Assembly: GCA_918797485.1 (NCBI GenBank) | Contig: CAKKNE010000006.1 | Location: 2,232,001-2,296,000, forward strand | Length of the DNA stretch: 64,000 nucleotides | Direction: 5' to 3' | Source: Pelagomonas calceolata | Taxonomy: Eukaryota | Shown: in pieces, positions 23,155-51,894 of the stretch | Layout of the letters: every line of letters begins with the position of its first letter | Numbering within the stretch: position 1 is the first letter of the stretch | The notes under the pieces: model-generated | The model's input: the letters and a program-made list of their open reading frames with translations, nothing else | What the model was told of the DNA's origin: nothing | Databases searched by the model: none | Translations under genes and position numbers: made by a program

Positions 23155-23308
23155 CTGTGGGTGTACCGTAGGCGTTGCCGCCATGGCCACCTGTAAAGTG
23201 ACCGATACGCGATTCGAACGCGTAACCTTCAGGACTGGAATCTGACGCGCTGCCGTTGCGCCAATCGGTCGGTCGAAGACAAGTAACGATGAGACGCCGC
23301 CGCGGTAC
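23155..23308 (-). mobile_element. tRNA-carrying intron element, copy 1 (154 nt)
   Basis: Minus strand GTACCGCGGCGGCGTC...tRNA...GCCTACGGTACACCCACAG|GCAC, ending 14 nt before ATG 23141. Confidence 0.65.
23199..23270 (-). tRNA. trnW: tRNA-Trp (CCA)
   Basis: GACCGAT TGGCGCAACGGCAGCGCG TCAGA TTCCAGT CCTGA AGGTT ACGCG TTCGAAT CGCGT ATCGGTC A: 7-bp acceptor stem, CCA anticodon, TTCGAAT T-loop. Confidence 0.93.
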
Positions 23309-23479
23309 GGCTCGGGGACGCCCTTGGGCAGTGCCGGCGAGCGCTGCTAAAGGCCGGCGTTGCGGCGCTGTTGTTGCCGTGTCGCAGTGTTGGCGTCAAG
23401 GACACTTGTGCACACACTTCTTTACTCGGTGACGGCGTGCAAGTGTGGTTTTGCGCCGCTGTTCAACTCTGGCGCAGGT

Positions 23480-23503
23480 GCTAGCGGCATGTAAGACACT
23501 AGC
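23480..23503. promoter_or_regulatory. CTAG-pair upstream element
   Basis: GCTAGCGGCATGTAAGACACTAGC upstream of the tRNA-hosting gene. Confidence 0.65.
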
Positions 23504-23632
23504 ACCGAATTGAGAAACGCGCGTGCGTGCGTAACCCGCACATGACAACGCTGCAGAGGCGGTTGCCGCCGCCGACGGACACGACGCAACGCGCAGGCGC
23601 CGGAGCACGCCACCGAAGCACAGAACTAAAAC

Positions 23633-24145
23633 TTACACCGTCGCATCGTCCGAAGGCGGCACGACGGGCGCCAGGCCGTTCCCATCTCTGGAATCCAAGC
23701 TCAGCGTCACGGGCCCATCATTAATTAACGACACGTCCATCATCGCCCCGAACCTCCCGTCGGCGAGCTTGGAACTTTCGGGCAGCTCTCCTCTCAAATC
23801 ACTCAGAAACGTCTCGTAGAACGCCTTAGCAGGCTCCGGGCCCATCGCGTGGCGCCAGTCGAGGTTGCCGCGCCCCTTCTTTCGTTTCAATTCGCCGTAC
23901 AACGTGAACTGCGAGACGCACAACACATCTAAACCAAGGCTCCCGACCGAATGCTTCCAGGGCCGCCCGTTTTCGTCGGCCCAGAAGTTCGTTTTCAGGA
24001 TGCGTTCGCGGCACCAAGCAGCGTCCGCGTCCACGTCGTCCCGGTGGATGCCCACGAGCACGAGCATGCCTTTGCCGATCTCGCCGACGACCTCCTCGTC
24101 GACGGTCACGCTCGCGCGCTTGACGCGCTGGAGCACGAGCCGCAT
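23633..24145 (-). CDS. DTD1: D-aminoacyl-tRNA deacylase
   Basis: MRLVLQRVKRASVTVD, LCVSQFTLYG, GRFGAMMDVSLINDGPVT. Confidence 0.95.
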   Translation of the reverse strand: MRLVLQRVKRASVTVDEEVVGEIGKGMLVLVGIHRDDVDADAAWCRERILKTNFWADENGRPWKHSVGSLGLDVLCVSQFTLYGELKRKKGRGNLDWRHAMGPEPAKAFYETFLSDLRGELPESSKLADGRFGAMMDVSLINDGPVTLSLDSRDGNGLAPVVPPSDDATV

Positions 24146-24241
24146 CGCCCGAGCGCTTGTCGCTGCGAGGAGCAGCAGAACTTGTGGGCGCGCCAGCGTA
24201 CAGTGATGGGTCGCCTCGGCAGCGTCAATCGGAAGCCGTGC

Positions 24242-24391
24242 CTGTGGGTGTACCGTCGGCATATCTCACCTGTTAAGCCCAGTGACCGATACGCGATTCG
24301 AACGCGTAACCTTCAGGACTGGAATCTGACGCGCTACCGTTGCGCCAATCGGTCGAAGAGAGGGCACGCAGAGGAGACGCGGCCGCGGTAC
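24242..24391 (-). mobile_element. tRNA-carrying intron element, copy 2 (150 nt)
   Basis: Minus strand GTACCGCGGCCGCGTC...tRNA...GCCGACGGTACACCCACAG|GCAC, upstream of the DTD1 ATG. Confidence 0.65.
24283..24354 (-). tRNA. trnW: tRNA-Trp (CCA)
   Basis: Same cloverleaf as 23199..23270 with D-loop GGTAG; identical to copy 3. Confidence 0.95.
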
Positions 24392-24876
24392 GAGGACGCC
24401 CTTGGCAGGTGAGTGTCGTGCGTGCTGCGAGACGCTCCAGCCAAGTGAGCCTGCACAGGCTCTGCGGCGAGAGAATTGCCCGGCGAAGCTGCTGCGGCAG
24501 GCGTAGGACTCGCGAGCGACAACTGCACCGAGTCTGGCTACTGCTGCGCGTAGCGTTGCCGCGTTTCAGACTCCCAATGCGAGAGCCTGCAGCTGCCTCT
24601 GCGAGGCTTAGTCTTTCAACCCAACGACACACGTCGTACGGGACACAGCACACGTCTGGAAGTCTCGTGGAAGCCTAGACAACAAAAAGCGGAGCAGCTC
24701 TCCGTGATGCACAGCGCGGCTGCGGAGACTTTGGGCAGCAAAACGCCGTCCGCGCGTGCGCCTCTCCGGCGCCTACGAGCCGTTCGTAGCTCACGGTCGA
24801 GCTGTTCGTCGCTCACGGTCGCAAAACTAAAAAGGGCTGTGTGAGGATAGCTGCCCAGCTCACAAGGGCATCAGCC

Positions 24877-25629
24877 ATGACCGAGGCCCTGCAGGCAGCC
24901 AGACCCCACCACCACGAAACCCTCGTGAACCAATTCCACGACGAGTTCGTCACGCCATCAGAGTTGAGAGATAGGGTAGAGGGCTGCCTGAAAGAGCGAC
25001 CGTCGAAAACGAAGGGCAAAATACCAAAAGAGGGCGAAGGCACCGTCACGGCCGCCCACTTATTACCAGTAAAACACCCGCAGTACCCGGCCCACGCTTT
25101 GCTCAAAGTGGACGACGTTCGGATCCTCGCGACGCCCGCGCAACTCCTCAAGCTGGCGGACGACGACCCGCGCTTCGGCCGGCTCCGGGAACGGGGCCTC
25201 TACGCCGAGTGGGATCCATCAAATTTTACTGAGAGAAGACTCCGCTACAGCTATATCATAAAAGTGCCCGTCGAACTTAATGGAGGCACTTTCTTCGTAC
25301 GCTCGGCGACGAAGCTGTACGCTCCTCGGGCGCCAGTTGCTACAGTACGACGGCGGTCGCGCTCTCCTAAAAAAAGGCGGCCGCGCACGGCGAAGGAACG
25401 GCAGAACGGTTGTGTGGACCGCAGCGTCGGCTTCCTGGACGCGATGCGCGATGCGTCGTTTAATGCAAGGCGGCGGCGCCAGCGCAGCGTCCGGCGCCTG
25501 GTGAACAGCGACGACTACGACTTCGCGGCCCAGTGGCGCGTGGCGTCGGAGTTCGTGGAGGCGTCCGGCGCGAGGGTGCCTCACGAGGCGCTCGATTGGG
25601 AGGCCATGGATGCCACCGACCTTTTATAA
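24877..25629 (+). CDS. Hypothetical protein
   Basis: 250-aa ORF from ATG 24877; no family recognised. Confidence 0.5.
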   Translation: MTEALQAARPHHHETLVNQFHDEFVTPSELRDRVEGCLKERPSKTKGKIPKEGEGTVTAAHLLPVKHPQYPAHALLKVDDVRILATPAQLLKLADDDPRFGRLRERGLYAEWDPSNFTERRLRYSYIIKVPVELNGGTFFVRSATKLYAPRAPVATVRRRSRSPKKRRPRTAKERQNGCVDRSVGFLDAMRDASFNARRRRQRSVRRLVNSDDYDFAAQWRVASEFVEASGARVPHEALDWEAMDATDLL

Positions 25630-25719
25630 CTTGTTGAGTCTTCTTTTGCGCGTCGACGGCGTATTGGGGGTCCGCATCGATGGCGTGAAATCGAGGCATC
25701 TGTTTCCTAGTATGTCCAT

Positions 25720-26960
25720 ACGCTAGATCACTAGGTCTTAAGGCCCGCCAAAATACACCAGCGATTGAAGGCGCCTTCTACCATCCGAATAGTACATTAT
25801 ATCAACTCCAGCCCAGTTTTCATACATATTGGACGGAACCGGAGCCGACGGCCCGCGCTCGGAGGGCGGGAGAAGAATTCTACTAGACAACTCCCGGGTT
25901 TATGTTCGTTTCCTTCCGTTTGTTGGTGGTAGAGTCCATCCATACCGCTAGAACGCCCAGCTAGACCCATCTCTTACTCCGTAGGCTCCGCGCGAAAGAG
26001 CGACTTCGCGCCCCGCGTTTATACGAATATGGACAACAAGACCTCAACCTGCGAGTATCAGCGACGCCACCATCCAGATGAACCATAACGCCGTTGTTCT
26101 ATTCACAATCGACCGACTTGCCCGTTCTCCGCGGACGACGGTACGTACGCGGAGCACCGGAAAGGCCCCAGACCGGTGGTTTATATAATAAATTTGCGTT
26201 TCGGGCGCTTTAGTAGTGGGACGGGCCAGATAACCGGCTTGATTGTGTACTACATTGCTCCGAGACCCAAAGATGCTCGGCGCGGGTCGTCGGTCTTGCG
26301 AGCCCACGATCTGGCTAGATTTTGCTCCAGACCTGAACCTACGACCATCAGCGCGTGTACCATCACCATGGACCATGACGCGATCATTTGTTCCATGATC
26401 GACCGACTTCCGCGAGGTCCAGATGCAGATGTTCACGTCCCGACCGTGGGCAGCCAAAAGTACCCTTCTTATAATGTAGATGTCATATACTTGTAGTTGA
26501 CTATCGGTGGGGTAGTATGGGGTCCAACGAGACCGCTATTACGATTCCTGGGGGCCCTCGGGTAATTGACGTTTTTGACGGGAACGGGGCGCCATCGGGC
26601 CCAAATTACACACTTTTTTCGGGGGCCGATCGGCTCCTGGAGGCCTCTCGGGGTAGGTCTGGTGGTGGGTAAGCGCCTGCACCGCATACGCCATCGATGC
26701 GGCAGCCTAGAGCTCTGGAAGCCATTGCCAAGTAATTCATGGTTCAATGAGCCGCAGTGGTGAGAGAATTGGTCGATTATGCCCCGAGCCCGGGCGCATG
26801 CGCTATAGGCGATTGCACGTGTATAGTACCGACCATATGCGCCCCTCGGGAGACCTGTTTGGCAGGGATTGACAGGATTCCACTGGTGCGGCCGCCATCG
26901 ACCGTAGGGCGCCCTCGGCCGCGAATTAAAAAAAATTCTTTTTCGGCCCCCAGTACGTGT
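25720..26960. repeat. AT-richer non-coding element with degenerate ~290-bp subunits; homologous to 8580..9130
   Basis: ACCATC-anchored blocks at 25780, 26069 and 26359; ATCGACCGACTT at ~26108 and ~26398. Confidence 0.6.
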
Positions 26961-27027
26961 CCCATTGATCTCTTTGGACCAGTAGCGAACCGAACGGTAC
27001 TCAAGCGGCTGCATGTCGCGATTTGGC

Positions 27028-27051
27028 GCTAGTGTCTTACAAGCCGCTAGC
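27028..27051. promoter_or_regulatory. CTAG-pair upstream element
   Basis: GCTAGTGTCTTACAAGCCGCTAGC, ~235 bp upstream of ATG 27285. Confidence 0.65.
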
Positions 27052-27284
27052 TGCCTCAACCGAGCGGCGCCCGAGAGCGATCGCTTGTGCGGCGTGTGAG
27101 GCCGGCCAGCTTTAGTGAAAAGTCTATATCGCTGCGGTCCATCGATTATCGCTGCCGCGTGTCAAGGCTGCATCATCAATCGAGCACTGCCACTACAGAG
27201 TGCACCCAAGAGAGAGCACCATTGCTGCACGCCACCGACGCGCATCAACAACAAAGACGCGCAGCAACAACAGCACACAACAAA

Positions 27285-28874
27285 ATGGCCGACAGCCAAA
27301 AGTACACCGCCGAGGAGAAAGCGCGCCACGCCGCGCGCGTCAAGGAGCGCGAGGCGCGCAAGAAGGAGCGCCAGAAGCAGAAGAAGGCCCTGACGAAGCA
27401 AGCTTCAATCGCACCACAAGCTACGAACGGCGGCCACAAGACTTATGATGCTTCATTACTCAAACGCGCGAGAAACGTGGGCGGACCCCCGTACGAGGCG
27501 TTTTTGAAATACTTGCCCCATGATTGTACCGAACAGCAAGTCACACAATTCTTCGCGGGCTGCGGTTCGTTGGAAAAAGCGCCTCGCATCCTGAAAGACC
27601 GGGCCACGGGAAGAGTTATAAGAGGCTTCGTGACGTTCGCCGAAGAGCAAGGCTTACAAAACGCTCTACAAAAAGACGGTCATAAGTTAGGTGGAAGAAA
27701 CATCAGCGTCACAATAGCCACAACGCACGGCACGTGCCAGCAGGAGGGCACGCACACGCCGGCGATGGCGTCTGAAGTGGTTGATGTTCTAGGTGCTCGA
27801 CATTCGAACGGTGTCTTCGTTGACGGGACTTTTGGAAGAGGCGGACATTCAAGGGAAATCCTGAAAGCGCTGGGTCCGTCGGGACGGTTACATGGCTTCG
27901 ACGTGGACGAGGACGCGATACGAGCCGGTAAACAACTGGAAAAACAGGACTCAAGGTTCACGATCCACCGGGCGCCCTTCTCGCAGATGCTCAAACACCT
28001 AGGAGACAAGGTACAAGGTGTTCTGCTGGATGTTGGTATTTCTTCACCTCAACTGGATGGCGGGCGAGGGTTTCGTCCGGAAGTGGAAGGTCCTGTTGAT
28101 ATGAGATTTGACGCCTCTGAGCAGTCCGAGACGGCGTTGCAGTACCTCGTACGAGTTTCAAGACAAGAATTAGCGGCTGCTCTAGAAGCGTTCGGTGGGG
28201 AGCGGCCCGCGCATGCTAGACGCATAGCCGACGCCGTCGCGCTCGCGAAGGCCGAGGACCCGTCACTCTCAAGCATGACGACGTCGAAACTAGCGCAATT
28301 GGCCTCGGCGGCGAAGGGGCACCGGGAGTACCAGCAGATGCACCCGGCCAAGATGACTTTTCAGGCTCTTAGGGTCGCGGTGAACCGGGAATTTGCCGAG
28401 TTAAGGGATGGCCTGGAAGCGGCGACGGAGGCTTGTGGCTTGAATGGCGCCGTTGCGGTCCTGACGTGGAAGCACGCCGAGTGTGCGGTTGTGGTCGATT
28501 TTCAGGCGACGCACTCATTGGCCGAGAAGGATTCAATGCTACTCAAGTATAGTAGTGGTGTCTCAGATTCTTGGGGCGTCGTGGTAGATCAAGCGCGGCG
28601 GCCCACGGATGCGGAACTGCGGCGCAACTCGCGGGCTAGGTCGGCCGTCTTGCATGTGCATAGGAAGTCAAGAGGGACGCGGTTGTCTGACTTGGAGGCG
28701 AAGGCTGGTGCAGTGTTGAATTGGGCGCCTCATCATATACCAGTGCCGGCGGAGCAGAGAGCCGGCTGCGACCGCTGGGGCGCCGGTGCTGGAAAGAAGA
28801 AGAAGAAGCGCGACGAGACGCCCGAGGAGCGCAAGGCTCGGAAGAAGGCGAAGAAGGCTCGCCGCAAAGAGTAA
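27285..28874 (+). CDS. RRM plus RsmH/MraW-family methyltransferase fusion
   Basis: RRM (AFLKYLP...RGFVTF) followed by HTPAM, FVDGTFGRGGHS, LLDVGISSPQLD, GPVDMRFD, HPAKMTFQALRVAVNRE, NSRARSAVL. Confidence 0.85.
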   Translation: MADSQKYTAEEKARHAARVKEREARKKERQKQKKALTKQASIAPQATNGGHKTYDASLLKRARNVGGPPYEAFLKYLPHDCTEQQVTQFFAGCGSLEKAPRILKDRATGRVIRGFVTFAEEQGLQNALQKDGHKLGGRNISVTIATTHGTCQQEGTHTPAMASEVVDVLGARHSNGVFVDGTFGRGGHSREILKALGPSGRLHGFDVDEDAIRAGKQLEKQDSRFTIHRAPFSQMLKHLGDKVQGVLLDVGISSPQLDGGRGFRPEVEGPVDMRFDASEQSETALQYLVRVSRQELAAALEAFGGERPAHARRIADAVALAKAEDPSLSSMTTSKLAQLASAAKGHREYQQMHPAKMTFQALRVAVNREFAELRDGLEAATEACGLNGAVAVLTWKHAECAVVVDFQATHSLAEKDSMLLKYSSGVSDSWGVVVDQARRPTDAELRRNSRARSAVLHVHRKSRGTRLSDLEAKAGAVLNWAPHHIPVPAEQRAGCDRWGAGAGKKKKKRDETPEERKARKKAKKARRKE

Positions 28875-28884
28875 TTGTAGTGTG

Positions 28885-29409
28885 TTAAATGACGTTAAGC
28901 CCGAAGCCCAGCCCCTTCGACAGCACGACCGAGCGCAGCCTCACTTGAAAATAGACGTCCGCGTTCGGCGGGATGATGGATCCTGCTTTTTCGCCGGACT
29001 TGGGGTAGCCTGTGCTACCATAAGCGAGCTTCGCCGGGAGCTTGCACCGCCGCGTGCCGCCGATGTTCATGTCGGCCAGGAGGCACTCCTCCAATCCCGG
29101 CGCTACTTTTTTTTCGCCGAGTTTGACTTTGATAGGCTTCTCGAAGCGCGAGAACTCCTTGCCCTCGAAGTCGTTGAGCCACGCGATGTAGTCGATCGTG
29201 ACGGTGTTATCTATTTTTGCCGGGCCGTCGCCCTGGCCAACCTTGACGTCGTAGTACTCTAAACCGGAGGCGGTTTTGGTCATCTCTTGGGCATGCGTCG
29301 GCGTCGGCAGGGCGAGGGCCGCGGGCGCGCCTAGCATCCATGCGCGGCGGTGCATCGGTTTCAGAGCGCTTGCTGCACATGCCGTGGCTGCGATGGCGAG
29401 GAGCTGCAT
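28885..29409 (-). CDS. FKBP-type peptidyl-prolyl isomerase, plastid/thylakoid lumen
   Basis: TASGLEYYDVKVGQG, MNIGGTRR, LAYG, IPPNADVYFQV; signal peptide plus RR lumen-type leader. Confidence 0.9.
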   Translation of the reverse strand: MQLLAIAATACAASALKPMHRRAWMLGAPAALALPTPTHAQEMTKTASGLEYYDVKVGQGDGPAKIDNTVTIDYIAWLNDFEGKEFSRFEKPIKVKLGEKKVAPGLEECLLADMNIGGTRRCKLPAKLAYGSTGYPKSGEKAGSIIPPNADVYFQVRLRSVVLSKGLGFGLNVI

Positions 29410-29535
29410 TTTTGCTAGCTAAAAATCGTAGTAATGCAGCAACAAGAACGCAGTGGTCGATTGAAGCAATCCGCAGTCAGCTGAGAGCACCAATCGCGCG
29501 TTTGCAGCTCACTTTTTGCCTGGCTGCAGCTGCAT

Positions 29536-29559
29536 GCTAGTGCCTTACATGCCGCTAGC
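29536..29559. promoter_or_regulatory. CTAG-pair upstream element
   Basis: GCTAGTGCCTTACATGCCGCTAGC between divergent genes. Confidence 0.65.
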
Positions 29560-29810
29560 TCTAAGTTTCCGGCTTCTCTTTGTCCGGGACGATTTAGCGG
29601 CCGTCGGCTTCAGCTGGACATCCCAGGCACTTATTCGTGAGATTTCTTGTGACCGCAGCGACCTCTCGGCTCCCAGGAGCTAGATACGCTAGCACCCCCT
29701 CAGTGGCACCTGGCCTGCAGCATCGCAGCGGTGGTCGGATCGGTGCACAAGCATCGTAGCGTCGCATAGGTGCGCAGTCGTCGCTGCGTCGTCGCGGATC
29801 GTAAGAAAAA

Positions 29811-30680
29811 ATGCTAAACACGCTGCGCCGCCGCGCCGACTACGCCACGCTGTCGCGAAGAGGCACGTTTCGCGAGTGGACGCGCGAGGTTCGGCTGCGC
29901 GAGTACGTGAAACGCGCCCTCAAGGCGACCGCGGCCGTCGCGGGCATCATCCTCGCCGGCGGCGCCGTCTATAGTCTTGCAGAGGGCCGCCAGTTCGCCG
30001 AGAGCTGCTACACGGCGCTCGCAATAGCAACAACAATTGGCGTTTCCGACGACCTCGAGCCGAAGACCGCCGCGGGCCGCTGCTTCACGGTTTTCTACTC
30101 GCTGTCGACGTTCGTCGCCCTGCCCTTGTTACTAAATGTGGCGGCCAACGGCGTGGCGCGCGTCGGCCTGACGCTCTGGGGCGCCGTGGCCGGCTACGAG
30201 TTGACGCGGGACCCGACGCTGCGCCACCAGCGCCGGCTGGGCTGCGTTTTAACAATTCTCGTGCTGCACGTATTGCTATTCGGCGGCCTCATGGGCTACA
30301 CGCTGACGTTTCTGGCGCCGTCGTACTGGGAGTCGGTCTACTACGCGTACATGGCGCTCTCGTCGATTGGCGTTGATTCCACTGTTCCGCACACGCCCGC
30401 GGCCGTCGCCTACGTGGCGTACTACGTGCTCGCCGGGCTGGGGCTCCTGACGCTCGTCGCGGAGGACGCCTACGGCCTCTACTGCGTCTACAAGGCGTAC
30501 CTGGATGACGAGGAGGATTGCGCCGTGCACGAGTCTCCCCGGTTACTGCGGCGCGACAGCTCGCAGATTGAACCAAAACTCAATTGGGTCCTCGGCACCG
30601 TGCACAAGATACTAAACCTCCCGCGGCGCCTCTCGGCCCAGGCCCTCGCGAGCGCCACGACGAATCCCCTGCGACCATGA
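29811..30680 (+). CDS. Two-pore (4TM/2P) potassium channel-like protein
   Basis: EGRQFAESCYTALAIATTIG...PKTAAGRCFT; YWESVYYAYMALSSIG. Confidence 0.8.
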   Translation: MLNTLRRRADYATLSRRGTFREWTREVRLREYVKRALKATAAVAGIILAGGAVYSLAEGRQFAESCYTALAIATTIGVSDDLEPKTAAGRCFTVFYSLSTFVALPLLLNVAANGVARVGLTLWGAVAGYELTRDPTLRHQRRLGCVLTILVLHVLLFGGLMGYTLTFLAPSYWESVYYAYMALSSIGVDSTVPHTPAAVAYVAYYVLAGLGLLTLVAEDAYGLYCVYKAYLDDEEDCAVHESPRLLRRDSSQIEPKLNWVLGTVHKILNLPRRLSAQALASATTNPLRP

Positions 30681-30711
30681 CTGTGTGTGTCCTAAGTGTT
30701 GTTAACATAAC

Positions 30712-33251: not shown

Positions 33252-34181
33252 ATGGACACCAACAACATCGATGTGGTGCGCGCCATCGTCAAGGCCGCGC
33301 GACCCTCCGACGCGAAGCGGGCGCCGCCGCGGCGCCCGCAAAAGCCGCCGCCGGCGCTCCAGCGCGCCGCGGCCTTGGTGCAGGGCGTGGACGCGTGCGA
33401 AACCGCTCTGAAACGCTGCGCGCGCGCTTATGCGATGCCCGATGACGACTCAGCGATGACGGATGCCGCCAGGGACGCCGTCGACGCGCGCGTCCGGGCG
33501 CTCTTGCGGGAATGCCAAGCTGCTTTGGACGAACCGTCGGCGGACAGCGGGAAACCGGGTTCACGAGAAGCGCACGCCCGGGGCGGCGTCGAGGTCGCGC
33601 GGGCGCGCACGGCGGCGCTGGCTGCGTTATTCCGGGACCTCGAGGTTTTAAGAAGGCGCCGAGAAGCCGCGGCGTCGGCGCCGCTCGCGATTCGCGCGGC
33701 GGTGGACGCCGACGCGGCGCTCCGCACGTCAAACGAGGACGCGGAGCTCCAAGCGATGCGCGGCCGGCGCATCGTCGCCGTCGAGCCGCCAAAGCCGAAG
33801 CCGAGGCCAGTCGCTGCGAAGCCGGCCGCGACGCCGCGGCCGGCGCCGGCGCCCGCGCGAGTGCCCGCGAACCAATTGCAACGGGAGCAGGCGCAGCTCG
33901 AGGCCGAGTTCGAGAGCCTGTCCGACGCCGCGCGGACCGTCGAAGCCAGGACCGAGGACGTGTCCCGCCTCGCGGCGCAGTTCGCCACCCTCGTCGACGA
34001 GCAGCACGACCAGGTCGTGACGCTCGACGGCCTCGTGGGCGACACGGCGAACCAGGTCGACAAGGCCGGCGACCACGTCGCCCAGGCGGCGTCGCGCCGG
34101 GCGACGCTGCCGCGCGTCTTCAACGCCGTCGTGTTAACGTTGGCGGCGCTGCTGCTGCTGATCCATGCGGTGCACTCGTAA
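33252..34181 (+). CDS. Qa-SNARE syntaxin (Syntaxin-18/Ufe1-like)
   Basis: SNARE motif VEARTEDVSRLAAQFATLVDEQHDQV...; C-terminal TM helix. Confidence 0.75.
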   Translation: MDTNNIDVVRAIVKAARPSDAKRAPPRRPQKPPPALQRAAALVQGVDACETALKRCARAYAMPDDDSAMTDAARDAVDARVRALLRECQAALDEPSADSGKPGSREAHARGGVEVARARTAALAALFRDLEVLRRRREAAASAPLAIRAAVDADAALRTSNEDAELQAMRGRRIVAVEPPKPKPRPVAAKPAATPRPAPAPARVPANQLQREQAQLEAEFESLSDAARTVEARTEDVSRLAAQFATLVDEQHDQVVTLDGLVGDTANQVDKAGDHVAQAASRRATLPRVFNAVVLTLAALLLLIHAVHS

Positions 34182-35721: not shown

Positions 35722-35850
35722 GCTAGCTGCTGTAAGGCACTAGCAGGCAACGCGTTCGGCAATGAGCCAGTTTGAGGAGATCCCGCCCCCGGGGCGCGGC
35801 TTCCAGGGCTCCCGCGCTTTAGGTGGGCTAGCGGCCTGTAAGACACTAGC
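35722..35850. promoter_or_regulatory. Two CTAG-pair upstream elements
   Basis: GCTAGCTGCTGTAAGGCACTAGC (35722-35744) and GCTAGCGGCCTGTAAGACACTAGC (35827-35850) upstream of the AP2 gene. Confidence 0.65.
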
Positions 35851-43163: not shown

Positions 43164-43469
43164 CGTCGTCTCCCGGTGGTCGTGCGCGTGAGTGGTCGCG
43201 GCCGGGGGTGGCTCCTCGGGGAGGTTGCTCACTGGGCTGCTCGTTCGTCGGCGCCGGGCGGTCTTCTCCGCGGCGGGTGGGCGACGAGGGACGACGGAGC
43301 CTTTGTGGAGTGACCCTACGTGTCGATAGTCGGGGGTGCGTGAGTTGGGCAGCCCTGCGCTAGATGGATGAGCGGCGCTGCGTGTTGCTAGATAGACTTA
43401 CTAGAATTCCGCAGGAGTTCCGCGTGTGCAGCTTGTAGCGCTATTCCAAGCGCTTCGGGCAGCCCAAAG

Positions 43470-43902
43470 ATGCGCTTCTTACTACTCTTGATCGGTCTTG
43501 CCGCCGCCGCCGAGGTGGGTCCCGGCGCCGACTCACCCCAGCCTTCGCATCCCGAGAGAGCGCCACGCGCAACGCCATCGAGCAGACGCAGTAGAGCGAC
43601 GCCGCCGCGCGCAGGTCATCCGCGACAAGAAGGAGGCCGAACAGGTCGCCAAGAAGCTGTTCAAGGACCGCCCCGGCCCTCCAAAAAAGGTCAAGGACGC
43701 GCGGAAGGCCGTCAAAAAAGAAGAATCGATCAAGCTGACGCGCGGCGGCGGCGCGCCACCCATCCCGAAGCCGCCGTCGGGCGAACCGCCGTCGGAGGAG
43801 GAAGCTAGGCGCCGCGCGCGGCGGCTGATGCGGCGCATGTCGCGGAAGCGCAAGGGCAAGAAGCACCGCAAGTCGAAAGCTTTCAAGAAGGGTATGCTAT
43901 AA
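43470..43902 (+). CDS. Small basic protein with signal peptide; intron 43515..43614
   Basis: MRFLLLLIGLAAAAE|GTGGGT...CGCAG|VIRDKKEAE; removing the 100-nt intron joins two ORFs in frame. Confidence 0.55.
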
Positions 43903-43925
43903 TGTGCCTTTCCATGTACTAGTCT

Positions 43926-45092
43926 CTAGTTACTCCCGCCGCGCCGGAAGAACGGCAGCGATATCTCCGCGTCGAGCATCCGCGCGACGAGACCTGGGGC
44001 CTCGGGCCGGTCGTCGTCGTCGTCCCAGCCCTCGCCGGCCGGCGCGGCGGGTGCCGGCGCGGGCGTGGGCGGCGGATCCTCGACGGCGCCGTCGTCGCCC
44101 CAGCCGTCGCCCGCAGCTGGTTCGGGCTCTTCTGACGGCGGCGGCGGCGCTTCGGGCGTCGCGGGCGCCGGCGGCGGCGCGGCCGGCTTTTTCTGCGCGG
44201 CCTGGATCGCGAGGCGCGCCTTTCTCTTCGCCTCGGCGGCCTTGGCGTGCGCGAGGCGCGCCGCGACCTTGACCGCCGACGTCATCGCGTCCTGCGCTTC
44301 TTTTTGAGCCGCCGCCGATGTACGAGAAGCGGCGATCGCGGCGTCGGCGGCGACCAAAGCAGCCCGGTCCGCCGCGGCCGCGCCGGCGTCCTTCCCTTGG
44401 GGCTTCTTCGCCCCTCTCAACACCTTGTTCGACCGCCGCTTATACCTCTCGAAGTCCGCCCGCAGCCGCGCGTTCGCGTCGCGCTCGTTGTCCAGAGCGT
44501 CGAGCGCGGCCCGTAATCTCGCGTCGTCGCCGCCTTTTTGTGGTACTACGGGTGCCGCGGCGACTGGCGTACGCGCCTGTCGTAAAGCGTCGTCGCGCTG
44601 CGTCTGCGCGTGGCGTAACTGAGCCTTCACATCGTCGAGGGCCGTCGCCTTGGCCTCTTCGAGAGAAGCCAATTTCAATTCCGCGGCCTTGCACTCCTCG
44701 TCGCGCTTCTTCGCGAAGTCCTGGACGGCTTTCAGTTTCTCTTTGACGGCGGCGATCTTCTTTTTTGCTTCTATTTTAACATCTTCTACCGCTTTTTTGA
44801 CCGCATTGTCTTTCTCGGTCTTTGCATCTCTCTGTAATTGTGAGAGTGCCCCCTTGGCGCCGTCCTTCACACTATCGATCGATTGACTTAGTTGGCGTTC
44901 CGCCTTTGCTCTTGCTTCCTCGGCCGCGTCGCGGGCGTCGAGGGCCGCGTCGCGCTCCCGCTCCAGCGCTTTTATCAGTTCATTGTCATCTTTGGTGTTG
45001 TTGCTGGGGGCGCTCGCGGCCAGCGCGTCTCGCAAGACTTCGAGTTCTTCCTCGGCGGCGGCGGCGCGCGCTTCGGCGGCGGCCAGGGCCAT
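43926..45092 (-). CDS. Coiled-coil protein
   Basis: Long heptad-rich ORF, 388 aa. Confidence 0.65.
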   Translation of the reverse strand: MALAAAEARAAAAEEELEVLRDALAASAPSNNTKDDNELIKALERERDAALDARDAAEEARAKAERQLSQSIDSVKDGAKGALSQLQRDAKTEKDNAVKKAVEDVKIEAKKKIAAVKEKLKAVQDFAKKRDEECKAAELKLASLEEAKATALDDVKAQLRHAQTQRDDALRQARTPVAAAPVVPQKGGDDARLRAALDALDNERDANARLRADFERYKRRSNKVLRGAKKPQGKDAGAAAADRAALVAADAAIAASRTSAAAQKEAQDAMTSAVKVAARLAHAKAAEAKRKARLAIQAAQKKPAAPPPAPATPEAPPPPSEEPEPAAGDGWGDDGAVEDPPPTPAPAPAAPAGEGWDDDDDRPEAPGLVARMLDAEISLPFFRRGGSN

Positions 45093-45306
45093 GTCTTGGT
45101 GTGACTGCTGCGCGTCGGCGGCGCGTGGCGTCTGTGTTTGGCTGGCTCAGCTGTTTAGGGCAGCAGCTTTTTTTTGCCTCGGCGGCGGTTGCGCGCAAGG
45201 TCTCGTTATAGCTCGACGGTGAACGGCTCCAGGAGGCCTCGCCTCTCGCGCAGGCGTGCGAACAGTGCGCGTGCCGCGAGCAATCGAGCCCGCGACCTTA
45301 AGCGGA

Positions 45307-45330
45307 GCTAGCGTATGTAAAGCCACTAGC
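45307..45330. promoter_or_regulatory. CTAG-pair upstream element
   Basis: GCTAGCGTATGTAAAGCCACTAGC between divergent genes. Confidence 0.55.
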
Positions 45331-45548
45331 AAGTGGTCGACGACGCGGCCTTTGCGAGGGCATAGCGCTTGGCCACGGCGTACTACGAGACGCTGTGACT
45401 CGCGCATCGCTGCGCACTTACCCTCGCGCCGCGATATCTCATCCCTCGACGCCGCCGCAGCGCGCCGCTGCAGCAAGCCTCGACTCCACACCACACCGCA
45501 CCGCCGCGCGCCGCGCCGCACCGATCACGCGACGCCCGCAAGACAACC

Positions 45549-46493
45549 ATGTCCAAAAAAGGCGCCGGCTACCGCTTAAGGAAGGAACTCCTAGCGATCA
45601 ACAAGGACCGCCCCGAGTTCATCTGGGCGACTCATAAAGAAACAAACATACTACTATGGTCCTTTCTCGTAGCCCCCCCGGACGACACGGTCTACGGCGG
45701 CGGCTACTACTGGGGCCGAGTGACCTTCCCCCAGGACTACCCCTTCGCGCCGCCCGGGATTCAATTTGTCACACCGTCCGGACGGTTCCGACCGGAGACG
45801 AAGATCTGCATGTCCATGTCGGATTACCATCCCGAGAGCTGGAACCCCGCATGGTCGGTGTCGACCATATTGAAGGGTGTCCTGTCGTTCATGCTGAGCG
45901 ACGAGATCACTACTGGTGCCGTCGAGTGTTCGGATAGTGAAAGGAGGAGGCTCGCAAGTGCATCTGTAGCCTGGAACTGTAGTCAACCGGAGTTTAATGC
46001 TCTATTTCCGGACTTCGCGGAGCTGCGGGAGGAAGAGTTGTTGCGGAGAGCGCGTCCGAAAAATGCGGGGCTCATCGCGAGGGGTGCGCTGGACGAAGCC
46101 GGGCTGCCCGGCGCCGCGGCCGCGAAAGCCACTGGTGATGCGTTCTTCCGCGCCAAAGCCTACGACAAGGCCATCGGTGCCTACACGCTCGCTCTAGAGG
46201 CGGCGCCGGGCTGCGCGGCCGTGTTAAGGAACCGCGCGGCGGCGCACGAGAAGCTCTCGGACTGGATTAATGTAGAAGCCGACGCGGCCGCGTCCCTGAA
46301 AGCGGACGCGGCGGCCGGCGAGCCGGTGTCCGCCAAGGCATTATTGCGGCGCGCGGCGGCGCTGGTGCAGCTTTCGCGGCCTGAGGACGCCATCACAGCG
46401 TATACGGATGCTCTGGCGCTGAAGCCGCCGAACGCCGATGCGATCAAGAAGGCGCTCGCGGCGCTCGAGAAGCCGCCGCCGCCTCCGAGCTAA
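45549..46493 (+). CDS. Ubc6/UBE2J-type E2 enzyme fused to TPR repeats
   Basis: YPFAPPGI..TPSGRF..TKICMSMSDYHPESWNPAWSVSTIL; TPR KATGDAFFRAKAYDKAIGAYTLAL...NRAAA. Confidence 0.88.
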   Translation: MSKKGAGYRLRKELLAINKDRPEFIWATHKETNILLWSFLVAPPDDTVYGGGYYWGRVTFPQDYPFAPPGIQFVTPSGRFRPETKICMSMSDYHPESWNPAWSVSTILKGVLSFMLSDEITTGAVECSDSERRRLASASVAWNCSQPEFNALFPDFAELREEELLRRARPKNAGLIARGALDEAGLPGAAAAKATGDAFFRAKAYDKAIGAYTLALEAAPGCAAVLRNRAAAHEKLSDWINVEADAAASLKADAAAGEPVSAKALLRRAAALVQLSRPEDAITAYTDALALKPPNADAIKKALAALEKPPPPPS

Positions 46494-46523
46494 GGCGCTC
46501 GCGGCGCTAAAGTAAGTATGTTG

Positions 46524-47732
46524 TTACGCAAGCGACAGCAGCTCCGCGCCGCCCTCCGTCGTCATGACCTCTGACTCATCATCATCAAAAGCCATGACCT
46601 CCGGCTCCGCCAGCGAAGCGAGACTGCGAGACGCCGTCTCCTCGTCCAGCGCCTGGCCCGGCGACTGGGGCTGGAAGGACGCCGATTCGTCGTCGAAGGC
46701 CATCACCTCGGGCTCCGACGAATCTTCCTGAGTAGCACGGGCGAGGCCGTGCCGCGCGAGCGTGAGGAAGTAATCTCGTAACGCCGCGCAGTCGACGGCG
46801 TCCTCGGCGACGGACGACGGAAAGGCGAGTGACAAAGCCACTGCTTCGTGGTCGTCGATATGGACCCTAAATAAATCGAACAATAGCCGAGCCGCCTCGT
46901 CGCACGGCATGGGCGCGCCTAGCACATCTAGTCCTTTGGCGCCCTCGCCCACTCGATCATAATCTAGAGCAGCAGCCAATAACTTGAGGAAGGCACTTCG
47001 TAAGACTCGCGCACGTCGATCTAAGGACGCCTCCCCGGAAGGCGTCATCGTCGTCGGCGGTCGCTGGCCCGCAGCCCCCCAGAAGCGTCTTTTCCCGCCG
47101 AAGAACTTTTCTTCACGCATTTTCAGCCGCGTTTTCTGGCGAGCTTTCCACTCGTAAAAAGCTCGCGTTCCTTTCTCCGGCACCTTTGCAGTGTCGGGGG
47201 ACCACTTCTTGTCCGGGGACATGCGCTTGACCCGTCGGGAAGGCTCTTTGAGTAGCGAGCTGGACATGCCCCTCGTCTTGATGCCGATGTTCCTTCGACA
47301 CTGTTCGATGGCGCCCAATTCAGAGTAAAAAACGGCAAAATCCCGCGAGTCGACGCGCCCGTCCGGCGCCAGGGCCAAGACAATGCTGCCGAGCTCCTTT
47401 GGTGTTAAACTCTTGGGCAGGACGCCTTTCAACAGATACCTCAGATCCTTCGGGGATAACAATCTTTTAGCTGCCCGCCAGACGGGTGGCAACGGATTGC
47501 GAGCGGCCGCGTCCGTGAGCTTGGCTACTGCTCTTCTTCGGTCGCGCTCGGTGTGATCGTAATCGCAGCCCGTGAGTGAGAACTCGAGGTCATCAAGTCT
47601 ATTCAGTATGATCGTCGAGGCCGCGGACCGTGACGTCGTGACCGTCGGCTGGGCGAGGTCGTAGTAGGCGTCGTCCTCTTCTTCGTCTGAGGAGGACATG
47701 GCGTGACGGCGTCGGGCAGCCTCCGGGTCCAA
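46524..47732 (-). CDS. Hypothetical protein with degenerate EF-hand-like segments
   Basis: 402-aa ORF; LTPKELGSIV...DGRVDSRDF. Confidence 0.55.
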   Translation of the reverse strand: MDPEAARRRHAMSSSDEEEDDAYYDLAQPTVTTSRSAASTIILNRLDDLEFSLTGCDYDHTERDRRRAVAKLTDAAARNPLPPVWRAAKRLLSPKDLRYLLKGVLPKSLTPKELGSIVLALAPDGRVDSRDFAVFYSELGAIEQCRRNIGIKTRGMSSSLLKEPSRRVKRMSPDKKWSPDTAKVPEKGTRAFYEWKARQKTRLKMREEKFFGGKRRFWGAAGQRPPTTMTPSGEASLDRRARVLRSAFLKLLAAALDYDRVGEGAKGLDVLGAPMPCDEAARLLFDLFRVHIDDHEAVALSLAFPSSVAEDAVDCAALRDYFLTLARHGLARATQEDSSEPEVMAFDDESASFQPQSPGQALDEETASRSLASLAEPEVMAFDDDESEVMTTEGGAELLSLA

Positions 47733-48078
47733 TGGGGCTGGCTAACTTGGTGGTGCCGGCGGGTGCTCACGCGTGCCGCGGCGACGAGTCCGATGGAGGG
47801 AGTTGCTGGCGACCGCTGCGCGTTGGACGCAGCCCCTGCGTCCACGCGGGCCGTATTACTCTGGCCGCTATACAGAGAGCAAAATCGGCCTGGGAGCCGA
47901 GAGCCGTTGTCGAGCCAGGGAGCGCGCCAGGCGTCTGGGTACCATTGATATGGCTCGTCGACGACTGCGTGGCGCGGCTTAAAAACGCGCGGGTTGAAAT
48001 GGTGATGCATCCTTGATCATTGATTTACGGCGCTGGTACTCCGTCAATTCAAGCCAAGACATCAAGGGCAGCGGTGCC

Positions 48079-49251
48079 ATGAAGTCTATCATCGTCGCCC
48101 TCGCGCTCAGCAGCGCCACGGCCCTGGTCGCGCCGTCAGCGCCGCGTATGCCCACTGCTTTACAAGCTGCGACCAAGGACCCGGCCACGACCTCCTACCA
48201 GCCGACGGAGGGCGCCAACGCCGCCGTGGACACGAATAATAAGGGAGACGCCTGGGTGAGCCAGATGCAGCGGCCGCGGAGGAACCGCAAGTCCGCCGGC
48301 GTCCGGTCGATGGTGCGCGAAAACTTTTTGACACCGGCCAACCTCATGCAGCCCATTTTTATTCATGAAGATTCGGACCAAGTGGTTCCTATTCCCTCGA
48401 TGCCTGGACAGAGCAGACACACGCTCGACTCCATGGTCGAGCAGGTGAAAAAGGGCATGGCGTTAGGTGTCAAGTCCTTCATCTTGTTCCCGAAAGTACC
48501 TGATGACTTAAAGACGAATTTTGCTGATGAGTGCTACAATCCCGACGGGATTGTTCCTAGAGCGGTCGCCATGTGCAAGGCCGCGTGCCCGGAGGCGACG
48601 ATCTGCACTGATATTGCTTTAGACCCTTATTCGGACCAAGGGCACGACGGCATTGTACTGGATGGCAAGATCGTCAACGACATGACCATCGAGCAGCTCT
48701 GCAAGCAGGCCGTCTGCCACGCGCGCGCGGGCGCGGACTTCGTCGGACCGTCGGACATGATGGACGGGCGCGTGGGCGCTTTACGTATGGCGTTGGATGC
48801 GGAGGGCCACACGGACGTCGGCATCATCTCCTACTCCGCGAAGTACGCGTCGGCCTTCTACGGCCCCTTCCGAGATGCGTTGGATTCGCACCCGGGTTTC
48901 GGAGATAAAAAAACCTACCAGCAGGACCCGGCGAATGGCAGGGAAGCGATCATCGAGGCGACCTTGGATGCGGCGGAAGGTGCCGATATGTTGATGGTGA
49001 AACCGGGCGTGCCTTACTTAGATGTGATTCGCAGAATCAGAGACGTCGTGGACCTGCCGATCGCGGCCTACCACGTGTCGGGCGAGTACGCGATGATCAA
49101 GGCCGGCGCGGAAAAGGGCTGGGTCGACGAGAAGGCGATCGTCCTCGAGACGCTCATGTGCTTCCGGCGCGCGGGCGCGGACGTCATCCTGACGTACTAC
49201 GCGACGGACGCGGCGCAGTGGATGAACGACGAGGGCAACGTGTGCCTCTAA
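48079..49251 (+). CDS. hemB: Delta-aminolevulinic acid dehydratase (porphobilinogen synthase), plastid, Mg-type
   Basis: RPRRNRKS, DIALDPYSDQGHDG, PSDMMDGR, YSAKYASAFYGPFRDA, MVKPG, AYHVSGEYAM. Confidence 0.97.
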   Translation: MKSIIVALALSSATALVAPSAPRMPTALQAATKDPATTSYQPTEGANAAVDTNNKGDAWVSQMQRPRRNRKSAGVRSMVRENFLTPANLMQPIFIHEDSDQVVPIPSMPGQSRHTLDSMVEQVKKGMALGVKSFILFPKVPDDLKTNFADECYNPDGIVPRAVAMCKAACPEATICTDIALDPYSDQGHDGIVLDGKIVNDMTIEQLCKQAVCHARAGADFVGPSDMMDGRVGALRMALDAEGHTDVGIISYSAKYASAFYGPFRDALDSHPGFGDKKTYQQDPANGREAIIEATLDAAEGADMLMVKPGVPYLDVIRRIRDVVDLPIAAYHVSGEYAMIKAGAEKGWVDEKAIVLETLMCFRRAGADVILTYYATDAAQWMNDEGNVCL

Positions 49252-49317
49252 TCGCGTAAGTTTCACAAGACATCTTAGATACTACGTTCTTCTTCGACCC
49301 GTGATTGCCGCGGTCGT

Positions 49318-49395
49318 CGCGTCGATGGCGTCACCCTACGCCGTCGCCGCGACGCGTCGTTGGGTTCGCGATACCACCAGGGCGCCATCGACGCG
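49318..49395. repeat. 13-bp inverted repeat between convergent genes
   Basis: CGCGTCGATGGCG (49318-49330) ... CGCCATCGACGCG (49383-49395). Confidence 0.65.
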
Positions 49396-49398
49396 CCG

Positions 49399-49896
49399 TC
49401 ATGGAGAAGAAGCGTCCGCCGCGGTGAACCCCATGCCGTTCTTGTCACTATACCTCTTCATGAAGCGCATGAACCGGTTCCATTCATCGGGGTTTGTGAG
49501 TAAGACCACGGCCGAGATGCCCGACGGGTTGCCTCTGACGAATTTGGCGCGCACGTCTTCTGTCGTCATACACCCCTCGGCGTCGCACAATCTCATGCCC
49601 GCTATTAATGAGTCCGGCGTGATCTCCCTATACAGCGCGTCAGCTCTCGGAAACCAGAACGTCGCCGTACCCGTAAAAAACTTGCCGTCTCTTTGGGAAG
49701 TGGCGCTGCGCGTCATCGAGACTTCCGGGATGACCGTCTCATCCACACCGGGCACGAACTGTATGACCGGATCGGACGACGGGCTGTCCTCTCGTATAAT
49801 CGGCTTGAGGTCGCGCGCGCGCTTGATGTCGCTGAAGGCCGTTGTTTTTGCGAGTAATGCGATTAGCGTCCAGCGTCGTCGTCGTCCGGGAGGCAT
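49399..49896 (-). CDS. psb28: Photosystem II assembly factor Psb28, nucleus-encoded
   Basis: IQFVPGVDETVIPEVSMTRS, GTATFWF, KFVRGNP, EWNRFMRFMKRYS; leader ...LLAKTTAF. Confidence 0.9.
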   Translation of the reverse strand: MPPGRRRRWTLIALLAKTTAFSDIKRARDLKPIIREDSPSSDPVIQFVPGVDETVIPEVSMTRSATSQRDGKFFTGTATFWFPRADALYREITPDSLIAGMRLCDAEGCMTTEDVRAKFVRGNPSGISAVVLLTNPDEWNRFMRFMKRYSDKNGMGFTAADASSP

Positions 49897-50266
49897 CGCG
49901 GCGACGGCCTCTGGGTTGCTAGAGTGCGTGCAGCTGGTGAGTGCAGCTCTAGTGTGCTAAGAGCGCTGATCGCGGCGGCGGCGTCTGGGTGCGTAGATTG
50001 TGCAGCAGTGCTCAAGTGAGCAGTGTGCAGAGTGTGGCGCCTTACGGATGCGCACGATTAGAGATGTGGATGTAAGGACAATCGGGATGCAGTACAGAGG
50101 ACACGCACTGCTCACCTCCAGCTGTGGCGTGCGTTTGCCCTTTGCCAAAGCCCTGCATCGCAGCAAAGAGGGCTTGAGCGGCGCGGCTCTTTACTTGCCC
50201 GGGATCGGTCACGCCGTCTGTTGGAAGGCTCTGAACGTCGTTCGACGCGTTTCGCGCCACTGAGGA

Positions 50267-50290
50267 GCTAGCGGCTGTAACACACTTAGC
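50267..50290. promoter_or_regulatory. CTAG-pair upstream element
   Basis: GCTAGCGGCTGTAACACACTTAGC between divergent genes. Confidence 0.6.
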
Positions 50291-50463
50291 AAGCGCTCAG
50301 TTTTTGCGTTTGTGCTGCGTACGGCCCACTTGACGCGGTGTTGACATACACAACGCTGCTGCGAGCGCAAGTCGGTCATCAAGCCGCGAGAGAGGCGAAA
50401 TCTTGGCGTGAAACGGCGCAGCGGGTGATATTTTAACGCTATTCTCAAAGTAACTGTTAGACG

Positions 50464-51894
50464 ATGCCGCGGAGCGCCAGACACACGATGGGCGGCCGGG
50501 AAGTCCTCGACGCGAAGACGATGCTGGACCTGCTCGAGGGCTCGGCCTCCGACGGCGGGCCCACGGTCACCATCGACGTGGACGTGTTCAAGGACAACTT
50601 CGGCGCGCCGCCGCCGCGGCGGAGCAGCGTCTCGGGGGGCCGGCGGTCGAGCTCGAGCGGCGCCTCGCGCCGCCGCGAGACGGCGGACCCGGCGCAGCTC
50701 AAGGAGCTGCTCCAGGCGTGCCTACTCGAGGGCAACGACGCGGCGGCGGCCGCGAGCCCGACGAGCCAGCCGCCGCGGCCCGCGCCGCGCCGGAGCCCGC
50801 GCTTCGCCAAGCCGCGGAGGCGGATGACGTGCGACCCGCGCCTGCTGAACCGCCTCGTCATGGAGCACTCGGGCGAGATCCCGACGATCCCCGAGGAGAC
50901 GAGCGCCACGGAGTCGCTCACGTCGAACCCGTACCGCGGCCGCGTCCGTCGTAGGTGCCTTCCGACCGATTGGCGCAACGGTAGCGCGTCAGATTCCAGT
51001 CCTGAAGGTTACGCGTTCGAATCGCGTATCGGTCACTGCCAGCTCGTCGATGCGCGCTGCCGACGGTCCACCCACAGGCTCACGAGCAATCTGACGAGCA
51101 ACCCGGCGACGAGCAACCTCACGAGCGGCGTCAGCAACCTCACGTCGGGCACGGGGCTCGAGTCCTTCGAGGAGAGCCGCGCGGCGGCGGCGCACGAAGA
51201 TCCACAAGAGAACGAGGACGACGACGACGACGAGGACGACGTGAGCTACGCGCGGCCCGTCGCGGCGCGTTCGTCAATTGCGTGGACCTTCGACGAGACG
51301 CGCGCGACGATGCAGGAGCTGCGGCGCCAGCTGCAGATCGAGAAGGAGGTGTCGCGCGACGCCGAGCGCGAGCGCGACGAGCTCGCGCGCGAGTTGAGTG
51401 GAATGCGCGCGGAGCAGGCCGCTAGAAGCGAGGTGCAGCAGGCGCTCGAGGCGCAGCGCGACGCGGCGGCGGCGCGCGCGTCGTCGGCCGAGGGCCGCGC
51501 GACGCGCGCGGACGCGGCGCTCGGCCGGCAGTCCCAGGAGTTCGCGGCCATCGACGCGGACCTCGCGGCGCGGGAACGGGAGATTGAACAAAGCGCCGAG
51601 CGCGTGAAACTCGAGGCCGACGCGCGCGTCGCCGCGGCCGAGCGCGACAAGGCCGAGGCCGAGGCCGAGCTCCTCGCGTTGAGGGACGAGGCGGCGGCTT
51701 TACGGGCGCGCGTGGCGCAGCTCGAGAAGGTCAAGATCACGTCGGGCCTCGCGGCGAAGATCCAGAAGGTCGTTCAGGAGCGCGACGAGTTATTGGCGGC
51801 GGCGCGCAAGGGCGGCCGGTTCAACGACGAGAACGCGGCGCCGTTCGGCGCCGAGGACCTCTCCCAGGCCGGCGGCGAGTGCCGCCAGTCCTAG
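50464..51894 (+). CDS. Coiled-coil protein with LTSN repeats; intron 50931..51077 hosts tRNA-Trp
   Basis: After removing 147 nt the repeat reads ESLTSNP-LTSN-LTSNP-ATSN-LTSG; C-terminal CRQS (CaaX-like). Confidence 0.7.
   Translation: MPRSARHTMGGREVLDAKTMLDLLEGSASDGGPTVTIDVDVFKDNFGAPPPRRSSVSGGRRSSSSGASRRRETADPAQLKELLQACLLEGNDAAAAASPTSQPPRPAPRRSPRFAKPRRRMTCDPRLLNRLVMEHSGEIPTIPEETSATESLTSNPYRGRVRRRCLPTDWRNGSASDSSPEGYAFESRIGHCQLVDARCRRSTHRLTSNLTSNPATSNLTSGVSNLTSGTGLESFEESRAAAAHEDPQENEDDDDDEDDVSYARPVAARSSIAWTFDETRATMQELRRQLQIEKEVSRDAERERDELARELSGMRAEQAARSEVQQALEAQRDAAAARASSAEGRATRADAALGRQSQEFAAIDADLAAREREIEQSAERVKLEADARVAAAERDKAEAEAELLALRDEAAALRARVAQLEKVKITSGLAAKIQKVVQERDELLAAARKGGRFNDENAAPFGAEDLSQAGGECRQS
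50931..51077 (+). mobile_element. tRNA-carrying intron element, copy 3 (147 nt)
   Basis: GTACCGCGGCCGCGTC...tRNA...GCCGACGGTCCACCCACAG; interrupts the codon CC|G. Confidence 0.75.
50964..51035 (+). tRNA. trnW: tRNA-Trp (CCA)
   Basis: GACCGATTGGCGCAACGGTAGCGCGTCAGATTCCAGTCCTGAAGGTTACGCGTTCGAATCGCGTATCGGTCA. Confidence 0.95.

Follow-up and report, generated by a model that had tools for sequence, protein, structure and literature searches.

Why should three tryptophan tRNA genes within 64 kb of an algal genome each lie inside a short GT-AG segment, and why should these segments share their two ends? The stretch analysed here, called the window in the following, comprises 64,000 nucleotides (nt) of Pelagomonas calceolata (contig CAKKNE010000006.1, positions 2,232,001 to 2,296,000 of the forward strand), a species for which excerpts of PMC9481584 report a GC content of 63% and the presence of introners. 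The three segments are copies of one GT-AG cassette of about 150 nt, which carries tRNA-Trp and occurs at many unrelated gene sites. Likely, the cassette is a spliceosomal intron that was multiplied as a unit via an RNA intermediate, and its tRNA is cut from the host intron RNA. In window positions, the cassettes and their tRNAs are the following:

23155..23308, minus strand: copy 1, GT-AG cassette of 154 nt, before the ATG of host 1; probable intron of the 5' untranslated region (UTR), candidate
23199..23270, minus strand: tRNA-Trp(CCA) of copy 1, by ARAGORN and Rfam RF00005
24242..24391, minus strand: copy 2, GT-AG cassette of 150 nt, before the ATG of D-Tyr-tRNA(Tyr) deacylase (DTD); probable 5' UTR intron, candidate
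24283..24354, minus strand: tRNA-Trp(CCA) of copy 2, by ARAGORN and Rfam RF00005
50931..51077, plus strand: copy 3, GT-AG cassette of 147 nt, in frame and stop-free within a coding region; exactly missing from near-identical proteins
50964..51035, plus strand: tRNA-Trp(CCA) of copy 3, by ARAGORN and Rfam RF00005

Coordinates, lengths, GT and AG ends and both end motifs are as the original prediction, made from the letters of the window, had given them, and all three tRNAs are indeed tRNA-Trp(CCA). Their matches to RF00005 (E = 4e-10 to 9e-11) are the sole Rfam matches in the window, which has a GC content of 56-69% and is eukaryotic sequence found in marine samples. The 3' end motif matches three times in the 64 kb, even with 3 mismatches allowed, and so does the 5' end motif with 1 mismatch allowed. 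As both are confined to the three cassettes, they are not a generic intron consensus; this explanation was rejected also on account of an ordinary introner-like intron at about 11376-11470, which ends otherwise. An in-silico intron finder run on the window was too noisy to yield a consensus. Ordinary introner-like introns were seen at about 11376-11470 (minus strand) and in the loci L007 (oriented positions 2093-2202) and L026 (oriented positions 817-895); they have CTG..CAG inverted ends and GT or GC donors, and their last five bases resemble the cassette 3' end. At 33523-33541 (minus strand), close to where another introner-like segment starts, the cassette 3' motif recurs with 4 mismatches, and no tRNA accompanies it.

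The anatomy of the cassette was taken from the three window copies and four complete metagenome copies. A 16-nt 5' end is followed by a variable 15-24 nt closing near CTTC and by the 72-nt tRNA; behind the tRNA come CT, a variable 20-23 nt and a 19-nt 3' end. Mean column identity over the whole cassette is 77% and the spacers are unalignable, so that the copies are not near-identical end to end. The predicted independence of the spacers from the conserved ends is supported; in length, the spacers hardly differ. The tRNA has a full cloverleaf, the CCA anticodon and the A and B boxes, and is under purifying selection: among window and metagenome copies it varies at one position only while the flanks diverge. 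This position is a C/T change that sets copy 1 apart from copies 2 and 3 and recurs with the same base in L007 and L026. Relatives of the tRNA show compensatory stem changes, one giant-virus copy included. An A-C mismatch at the base of the anticodon stem, considered as a peculiarity, was dismissed, as the same read-through occurs in unrelated matches and in the giant virus.

Metagenome DNA and protein records revealed how widely the cassette is distributed. A metagenome scan with the 3' end alone returned 26 loci, six of which carry the cassette tRNA directly upstream; the full 5' end is present in four of these six, at 142-156 nt. The other 20 loci have no tRNA, and none has a 5' end (fewer than 3 mismatches) within 400 nt; lacking this end, they were treated as chance matches rather than as tRNA-less or other-isotype members of the family. 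A profile-free protein search with a 50-residue read-through as query gave 90 proteins, which with 6 found earlier make 96; 61 of these are of the cassette tRNA type, and the other 35 were set aside. The T-stem variant found in the window is accompanied by the 5' end in 26 of the 31 records with enough upstream sequence and by the 3' end in 15 of 20. For the other T-stem variant, which was seen in DNA run X8 and not in X2, the respective counts are 7 of 23 and 0 of 17. Because metagenome records are often chimeric across the tRNA, upstream and downstream halves of the host contexts were counted apart, in counts that pool samples and lineages (not one genome) as well as DNA copies and read-through proteins. 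By hand count, 27 upstream keys reduce to 21 contexts, 17 of them with the window tRNA variant, and the downstream contexts number 14. Both the multi-copy intron family with conserved ends and the dispersal of the tRNA gene that the original prediction had proposed are borne out by these many unrelated gene sites. The summed DNA depth of 19870 compared to about 560 is a hint at copy number only, as summed contig depth is no copy number.

Outside this material, two scans of prokaryote genomes gave no matches. Viral contigs gave none to the 3' end and 102 to the 5' end, and among the 80 of the latter that were examined none had the 3' end or a tRNA behind it. AT-rich marine viral contigs (L027-L031, one of them filed as a giant-virus genome) hold a stand-alone tRNA-Trp that is identical at 68 of 72 positions, bears compensatory changes in the acceptor and T stems and has an Hsp70-like frame beside it, without cassette ends. 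In the metagenome copy L025, the anticodon loop is 7 nt short, which makes it a pseudogene or an assembly error.

Whether the cassette behaves as an intron can be judged from sites that are empty in one record and filled in another. Copy 3 contains no stop and is in frame with host 3. Exactly its 49 residues are missing from two proteins, P0005 and P0029, the latter of which is 427 aa long and differs from the window protein by 5 mismatches, and all seven members of a sister cluster of about 83% identity are without copy 3; their contigs reach 36,705 nt and are therefore genomic. An eEF3-type site is empty in P0076 and P0121 (VPKVVLET-HGFHK) and filled in P0099 and P0059, with no residue added. 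Presence and absence at orthologous sites, which the original prediction had suggested comparing, thus exists at the copy-3 site and at the eEF3-type site. In L007, a copy of 148 nt shifts the frame, and its excision unites 60 upstream and 239 downstream codons in one frame. The 49 extra residues of the public protein record P0027 (window 50464-51894) are probably spurious, stemming from cassette read-through. Cassettes 1 and 2 are present in both DNA read runs. RNA read depth at 24271 is 5 and 3, that of the DTD exon 51 and 28; splicing and a downstream start are equally compatible with this difference.

The sites themselves provide clues to the origin of the copies. Host genes and exonic flanks in the window are:

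22509..23141, minus strand: host 1 reading frame, no Pfam family (Pfam scan)
23633..24145, minus strand: host 2, coding sequence of DTD (PF02580, Pfam)
50464..51894, plus strand: host 3 reading frame of 476 aa with the cassette translated and 427 aa minus the cassette; no Pfam family
23309..23331, minus strand: upstream exonic flank of copy 1; LPKGVPE, probably homologous, by peptide comparison, to VPKVVLET (eEF3-type, before the donor site)
24392..24408, minus strand: upstream exonic flank of copy 2; 12-nt exact match to the copy 1 flank
24231..24241, minus strand: downstream exonic flank of copy 2; shared at 10 of 12 nt with L005 and at 11 of 12 nt with L012, matches the HGFH codons of the eEF3-type site

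Copies 1 and 2 are separated by 1084 nt and end 13 nt and 96 nt, respectively, before the first ATG of their hosts. The copy 1 site is also occupied in a diverged allele, L026, and P0058 is an allele of copy 2. Of 3000 random pairs, 6 attain a match as long as the 12 nt that copies 1 and 2 have in common within their 30 upstream nt. Since the flanks of copies 1 and 2, L005, L012 and P0103 resemble eEF3-type codons, these copies appear to stem from that site and to have brought along some 20 nt of its exon. The claim that the three hosts are unrelated stands insofar as copy 2 precedes DTD and hosts 1 and 3 have no Pfam family, but copies 1 and 2 share an exonic flank; independent insertions are too simple an account of two copies that hold exon remnants of one donor site. 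The copies at coding sites (copy 3, L007 and L015) have 4-6 of 12 downstream bases in common with other copies and no eEF3-type remnant. All seven DNA-level sites resume with GC, and C is the last base before the insertion at all five whose left side is known. At the flanks of the DNA-level copies, no target-site duplication of 1-12 nt was found.

A 24-nt motif whose ends are palindromic (GCTAG..CTAGC), and which might serve as a promoter or terminator, occurs 10 times in the window (up to 4 mismatches), on both strands and apparently in intergenic positions (4930-4953, 7185-7208, 20208, 23480-23503, 27028, 29536, 35827-35850, 37152, 41829 and 62109); L026 has a similar copy at the corresponding place.

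The putative donor site seems to belong to a wider set of genes with putative tRNAs in their introns. P0121 and P0076 are eEF3/New1-like (E 4e-39); the eEF3 match is short in P0099 and P0059, which may be fragments and not the gene itself. No full-length relatives of these two were found on searching; the link to eEF3 was made through P0076 and P0121. The cassette 5' end also precedes non-Trp sequences in P0076 and P0121 (eEF3-type), P0111 (part of eL24) and P0114, possibly of Arg, Leu or Ser isotypes. Peptides behind this end translate tRNA A and B boxes at the correct spacing; P0076 and P0121 each contain three of these sets. Records of uL2 have a tRNA-like sequence ahead of residue 35 and break at residue ~120 into a similar (variant) leader and tRNA-Trp; cold-shock and cyclophilin genes follow the same pattern. 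Long tRNA-cluster introns seem to share the cassette 5' end and to have different 3' ends. With tRNA-like sequences other than tRNA-Trp behind the same 5' end, the second option of the original prediction, a scaffold for tRNA-bearing introns, is strengthened as well.

We also examined the terminal stem, the spacers and the trailer. The predicted terminal complementarity is real, as a 6-nt complement of the 5' end occurs in the last 30 nt of only 53 of 5937 GT..AG segments of like length (0.9%). The 10-bp stem, however, is perfect in copy 2 alone: pair 7 is broken in copy 1 and pair 2 in copy 3, and 4 of 70 stem cells are imperfect. The right arm stops 8 nt inside the 3' end and leaves a constant 8-nt tail outside, so that the inverted repeats do not stand at both termini. 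Fold z-scores were -2.4 (copy 1, first 150 nt), -2.8 and -1.2. A spacer-to-spacer covariation hinted at by single folds was dropped at a permutation p of about 0.1. The exon of copy 3 is joined to six different 3' spacers although the proteins are ~99% identical. L015 and L025 are equal at 196 of 200 downstream bases with unalignable spacers; one of them may be a mosaic, given that they are only 85% alike upstream. Leader variants recur across different loci, and alleles of one locus differ. The flanks of active tRNA genes mutate several-fold faster according to excerpts of PMC6130373; such mutable flanks are a possible cause of the high spacer variability, with exchange between copies as a second one. 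The trailer measures 41-44 nt in all nine DNA copies and has a T4 run in one of them; the T-run terminator of a canonical RNA polymerase III (Pol III) unit is absent from the other eight.

That the cassette is an intron which multiplies via RNA and from which the tRNA is processed is, in our estimate, slightly more probable than the opposite. Related algae would keep tRNA genes, often as clusters, in introns of genes for translation and other housekeeping functions (eEF3, eL24 and uL2) behind the cassette 5' end. A single-Trp version with a fixed 3' end would have entered the eEF3-type site and then spread. Reverse splicing would account for the precision of the insertions in coding exons; copies 1 and 2 may have moved as DNA or unspliced complementary DNA, short exon flanks included, into untranslated leaders. 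We propose release of the tRNA from the intron by RNase P and RNase Z because there is no T-run terminator. Selection on splicing and on the tRNA would hold the ends and the tRNA constant as the spacers drift. The sense orientation of the tRNA with its host is weak evidence, because the protein search detects sense copies only and selection removes antisense copies. A more far-reaching joint reading is possible and decidedly tentative: cytosolic tRNAs of these algae would stem from introns of housekeeping genes transcribed by RNA polymerase II behind one 5' leader, and the whole tRNA-Trp supply of the present lineage would now come from a mobile intron family. Just as tentatively, the same reading would make the cassette a domesticated introner whose splicing is coupled to tRNA biogenesis and whose dispersed copies replaced the ancestral clustered gene.

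The original prediction had pointed to DNA transposons with terminal inverted repeats (TIRs), of the kind found in Aureococcus and Micromonas. In such a case, the cassette would be a non-autonomous, MITE-type (miniature inverted-repeat transposable element) introner that captured tRNA-Trp, with a transposase acting on the inverted ends and the tRNA as a Pol III passenger. The organism would suit this, as excerpts of PMC9481584 count 956 putative TIR introners in P. calceolata and excerpts of PMC12130899 assign ~82% of classified introners to TIR elements. The last five bases of the cassette are those of the right end of ordinary introners in the same organism; its left end is unlike theirs and is common to the long tRNA-cluster introns with other 3' ends. 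The ends are complementary over 6-10 bp, and in L007 arms of about 30 nt pair almost throughout, but a constant 8-nt tail lies beyond the right arm and the stem lacks covariation. The target is constant, C before and GC behind the insertion, yet the cassette is all that distinguishes a filled from an empty site, with no duplication. No tRNA-less copy occurs among the 26 loci, and no autonomous partner with the cassette ends is among the 43 window frames (Pfam), a genome-wide transposase search not having been made. We regard this origin as quite improbable, and a TIR transposon of the named kind is not supported.

Alternatively, an ordinary intronic tRNA gene might have been copied by DNA-level duplication and ectopic gene conversion, guided by short homology to the donor exon junction and without an RNA intermediate. 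This explains better than spread through RNA does why copies 1 and 2, L005, L012 and P0103 all retain exon pieces of one donor. It also suits the distance of only 1084 nt between copies 1 and 2 and the resumption with GC at all seven DNA-level sites, as in the donor. Splicing constraints would keep the ends, and mutation associated with Pol III transcription would scramble the spacers, in agreement with the fast-mutating flanks of active tRNA genes in the excerpts of PMC6130373 and with leader variants that recur between loci and differ between alleles of one locus. Plain duplication would hardly produce exact double breakpoints at many coding sites, however. Copy 3, L007 and L015 share only 4-6 of 12 downstream bases with the other copies, no residues are added at copy 3, and eight of nine trailers have no Pol III terminator. 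Both the mode of copying and this account of ends and spacers seem unlikely to us. A tRNA-derived retroelement resembling a short interspersed nuclear element (SINE), spliced by chance and with the tRNA as promoter only and not working, is very improbable. Internal A and B boxes, many copies and the damaged anticodon loop of L025 would be in line with it, but the tRNA is identical save for one position while the flanks diverge, its relatives show compensatory stem changes up to the giant-virus copy, and it lies centrally instead of forming a 5' head; nor is there a poly(A) or simple-repeat tail or a duplication. For tRNA-Trp as a primer of stramenopile retroelements, a further idea, the literature search gave nothing.

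Several observations weigh against the reading of the cassette as an RNA-borne intron that releases its tRNA. Sense-strand tRNA-Trp reads with flanks reach a depth of 481 and 205 in poly(A) RNA, and 456 of 481 (95%) and 188 of 205 (92%) of them have the other T-stem variant; as this variant never accompanies the cassette 3' end, the sampled poly(A) RNA points to another main visible source of tRNA-Trp than the cassettes. In favour of the reading are the depth of these sense-strand reads and their commonest upstream flank (158 reads, agreement 0.66), which corresponds by hand translation to the uL2 read-through leader. No splice-junction reads were found for any copy among the joints listed (15 of 38, mostly DNA contigs), and RNA depth does not place transcript starts upstream of copies 1 and 2. 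P0027, P0004 and P0028 read through copy 3, and P0029 and P0005 could be intron-less alleles. Some records are chimeric across the tRNA, namely P0161, in which another locus is joined to the copy-3 exon, and P0009. Reverse splicing would not be expected to leave the exon remnants seen at copies 1 and 2. None of the 10 pairs of the terminal stem shows covariation, and pairing between spacers did not differ significantly from swapped pairs (permutation p 0.11, 0.07 and 0.12). Hypervariable flanks fit Pol III transcription too, judging from the excerpts of PMC6130373, and the other isotypes and the wider scaffold are known from peptides only.

Poly(A) reads on 23198-24355 link tRNA-Trp to tRNA-Trp by spacers of 26 and 32 nt that start with the core of the cassette 5' motif, as in tandem arrays or circles from another locus. 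The region 25640-27000 is a very high-copy repeat (DNA depth ~4e5 compared to 570) with poly(A) transcripts from both strands.

The cassette family joins two questions, namely how introns spread without target-site duplication and whether working tRNAs are cut from spliced introns. Its invariant cargo, small size, empty and filled sites and traceable donor flanks make both testable in a culturable, abundant marine alga. A practical consequence concerns annotation, where in-frame cassette copies have erroneously been entered as protein (P0027).

Among known systems, introner elements are reportedly treated by Huff et al. 2016. Intron-encoded snoRNAs lie in sense orientation in highly expressed ribosomal-protein and translation-factor genes, at a fixed distance to the 3' splice site and with pairing ends; the cassette likewise is an intron with a small RNA in sense, but its cargo is a tRNA and the host intron itself has been multiplied. 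A tRNA-carrying introner was not described in the literature searched (including excerpts of PMC11282704 and PMC12218528), with most subscription journals outside its scope, and this absence is no proof; the word 'tRNA' is absent from the main text of each of PMC9860276, PMC12130899, PMC4540971 and PMC9481584. Compared to the introners of Micromonas, Aureococcus and Pelagomonas as presented in excerpts of these four papers, the cassette carries a full, conserved tRNA, has a hypervariable instead of a near-identical interior, lacks a target-site duplication and numbers tens of copies rather than hundreds. Fungal introner-like elements, for which spread by spliceosomal retrohoming was proposed (PMC3609843), resemble the cassette as splice-site-bounded units without duplication and with a predicted hairpin; compensatory changes are reported for them, whereas the cassette stem shows none, and a tRNA cargo such as that of the cassette is not mentioned. 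In Caenorhabditis, excerpts of PMC4999229 describe intronic tRNA genes, tRNA-Trp included, that are influenced by the host promoter; 44% of the tRNA genes are intronic (no more than chance) and 56% lie in sense, and release by splicing is raised merely as a possibility. Unlike the cassette, these introns share no ends. Human nimtRNAs (PMC7722341, excerpts) also place a cloverleaf inside a spliceosomal intron and may promote splicing, but they originate from mitochondrial inserts, are not processed as tRNAs and have no common intron ends. The cassette is thus real, not ordinary and present at many loci, probably a kind of introner whose cargo is a conserved tRNA, and linked to an apparently broader practice of keeping tRNAs in introns.

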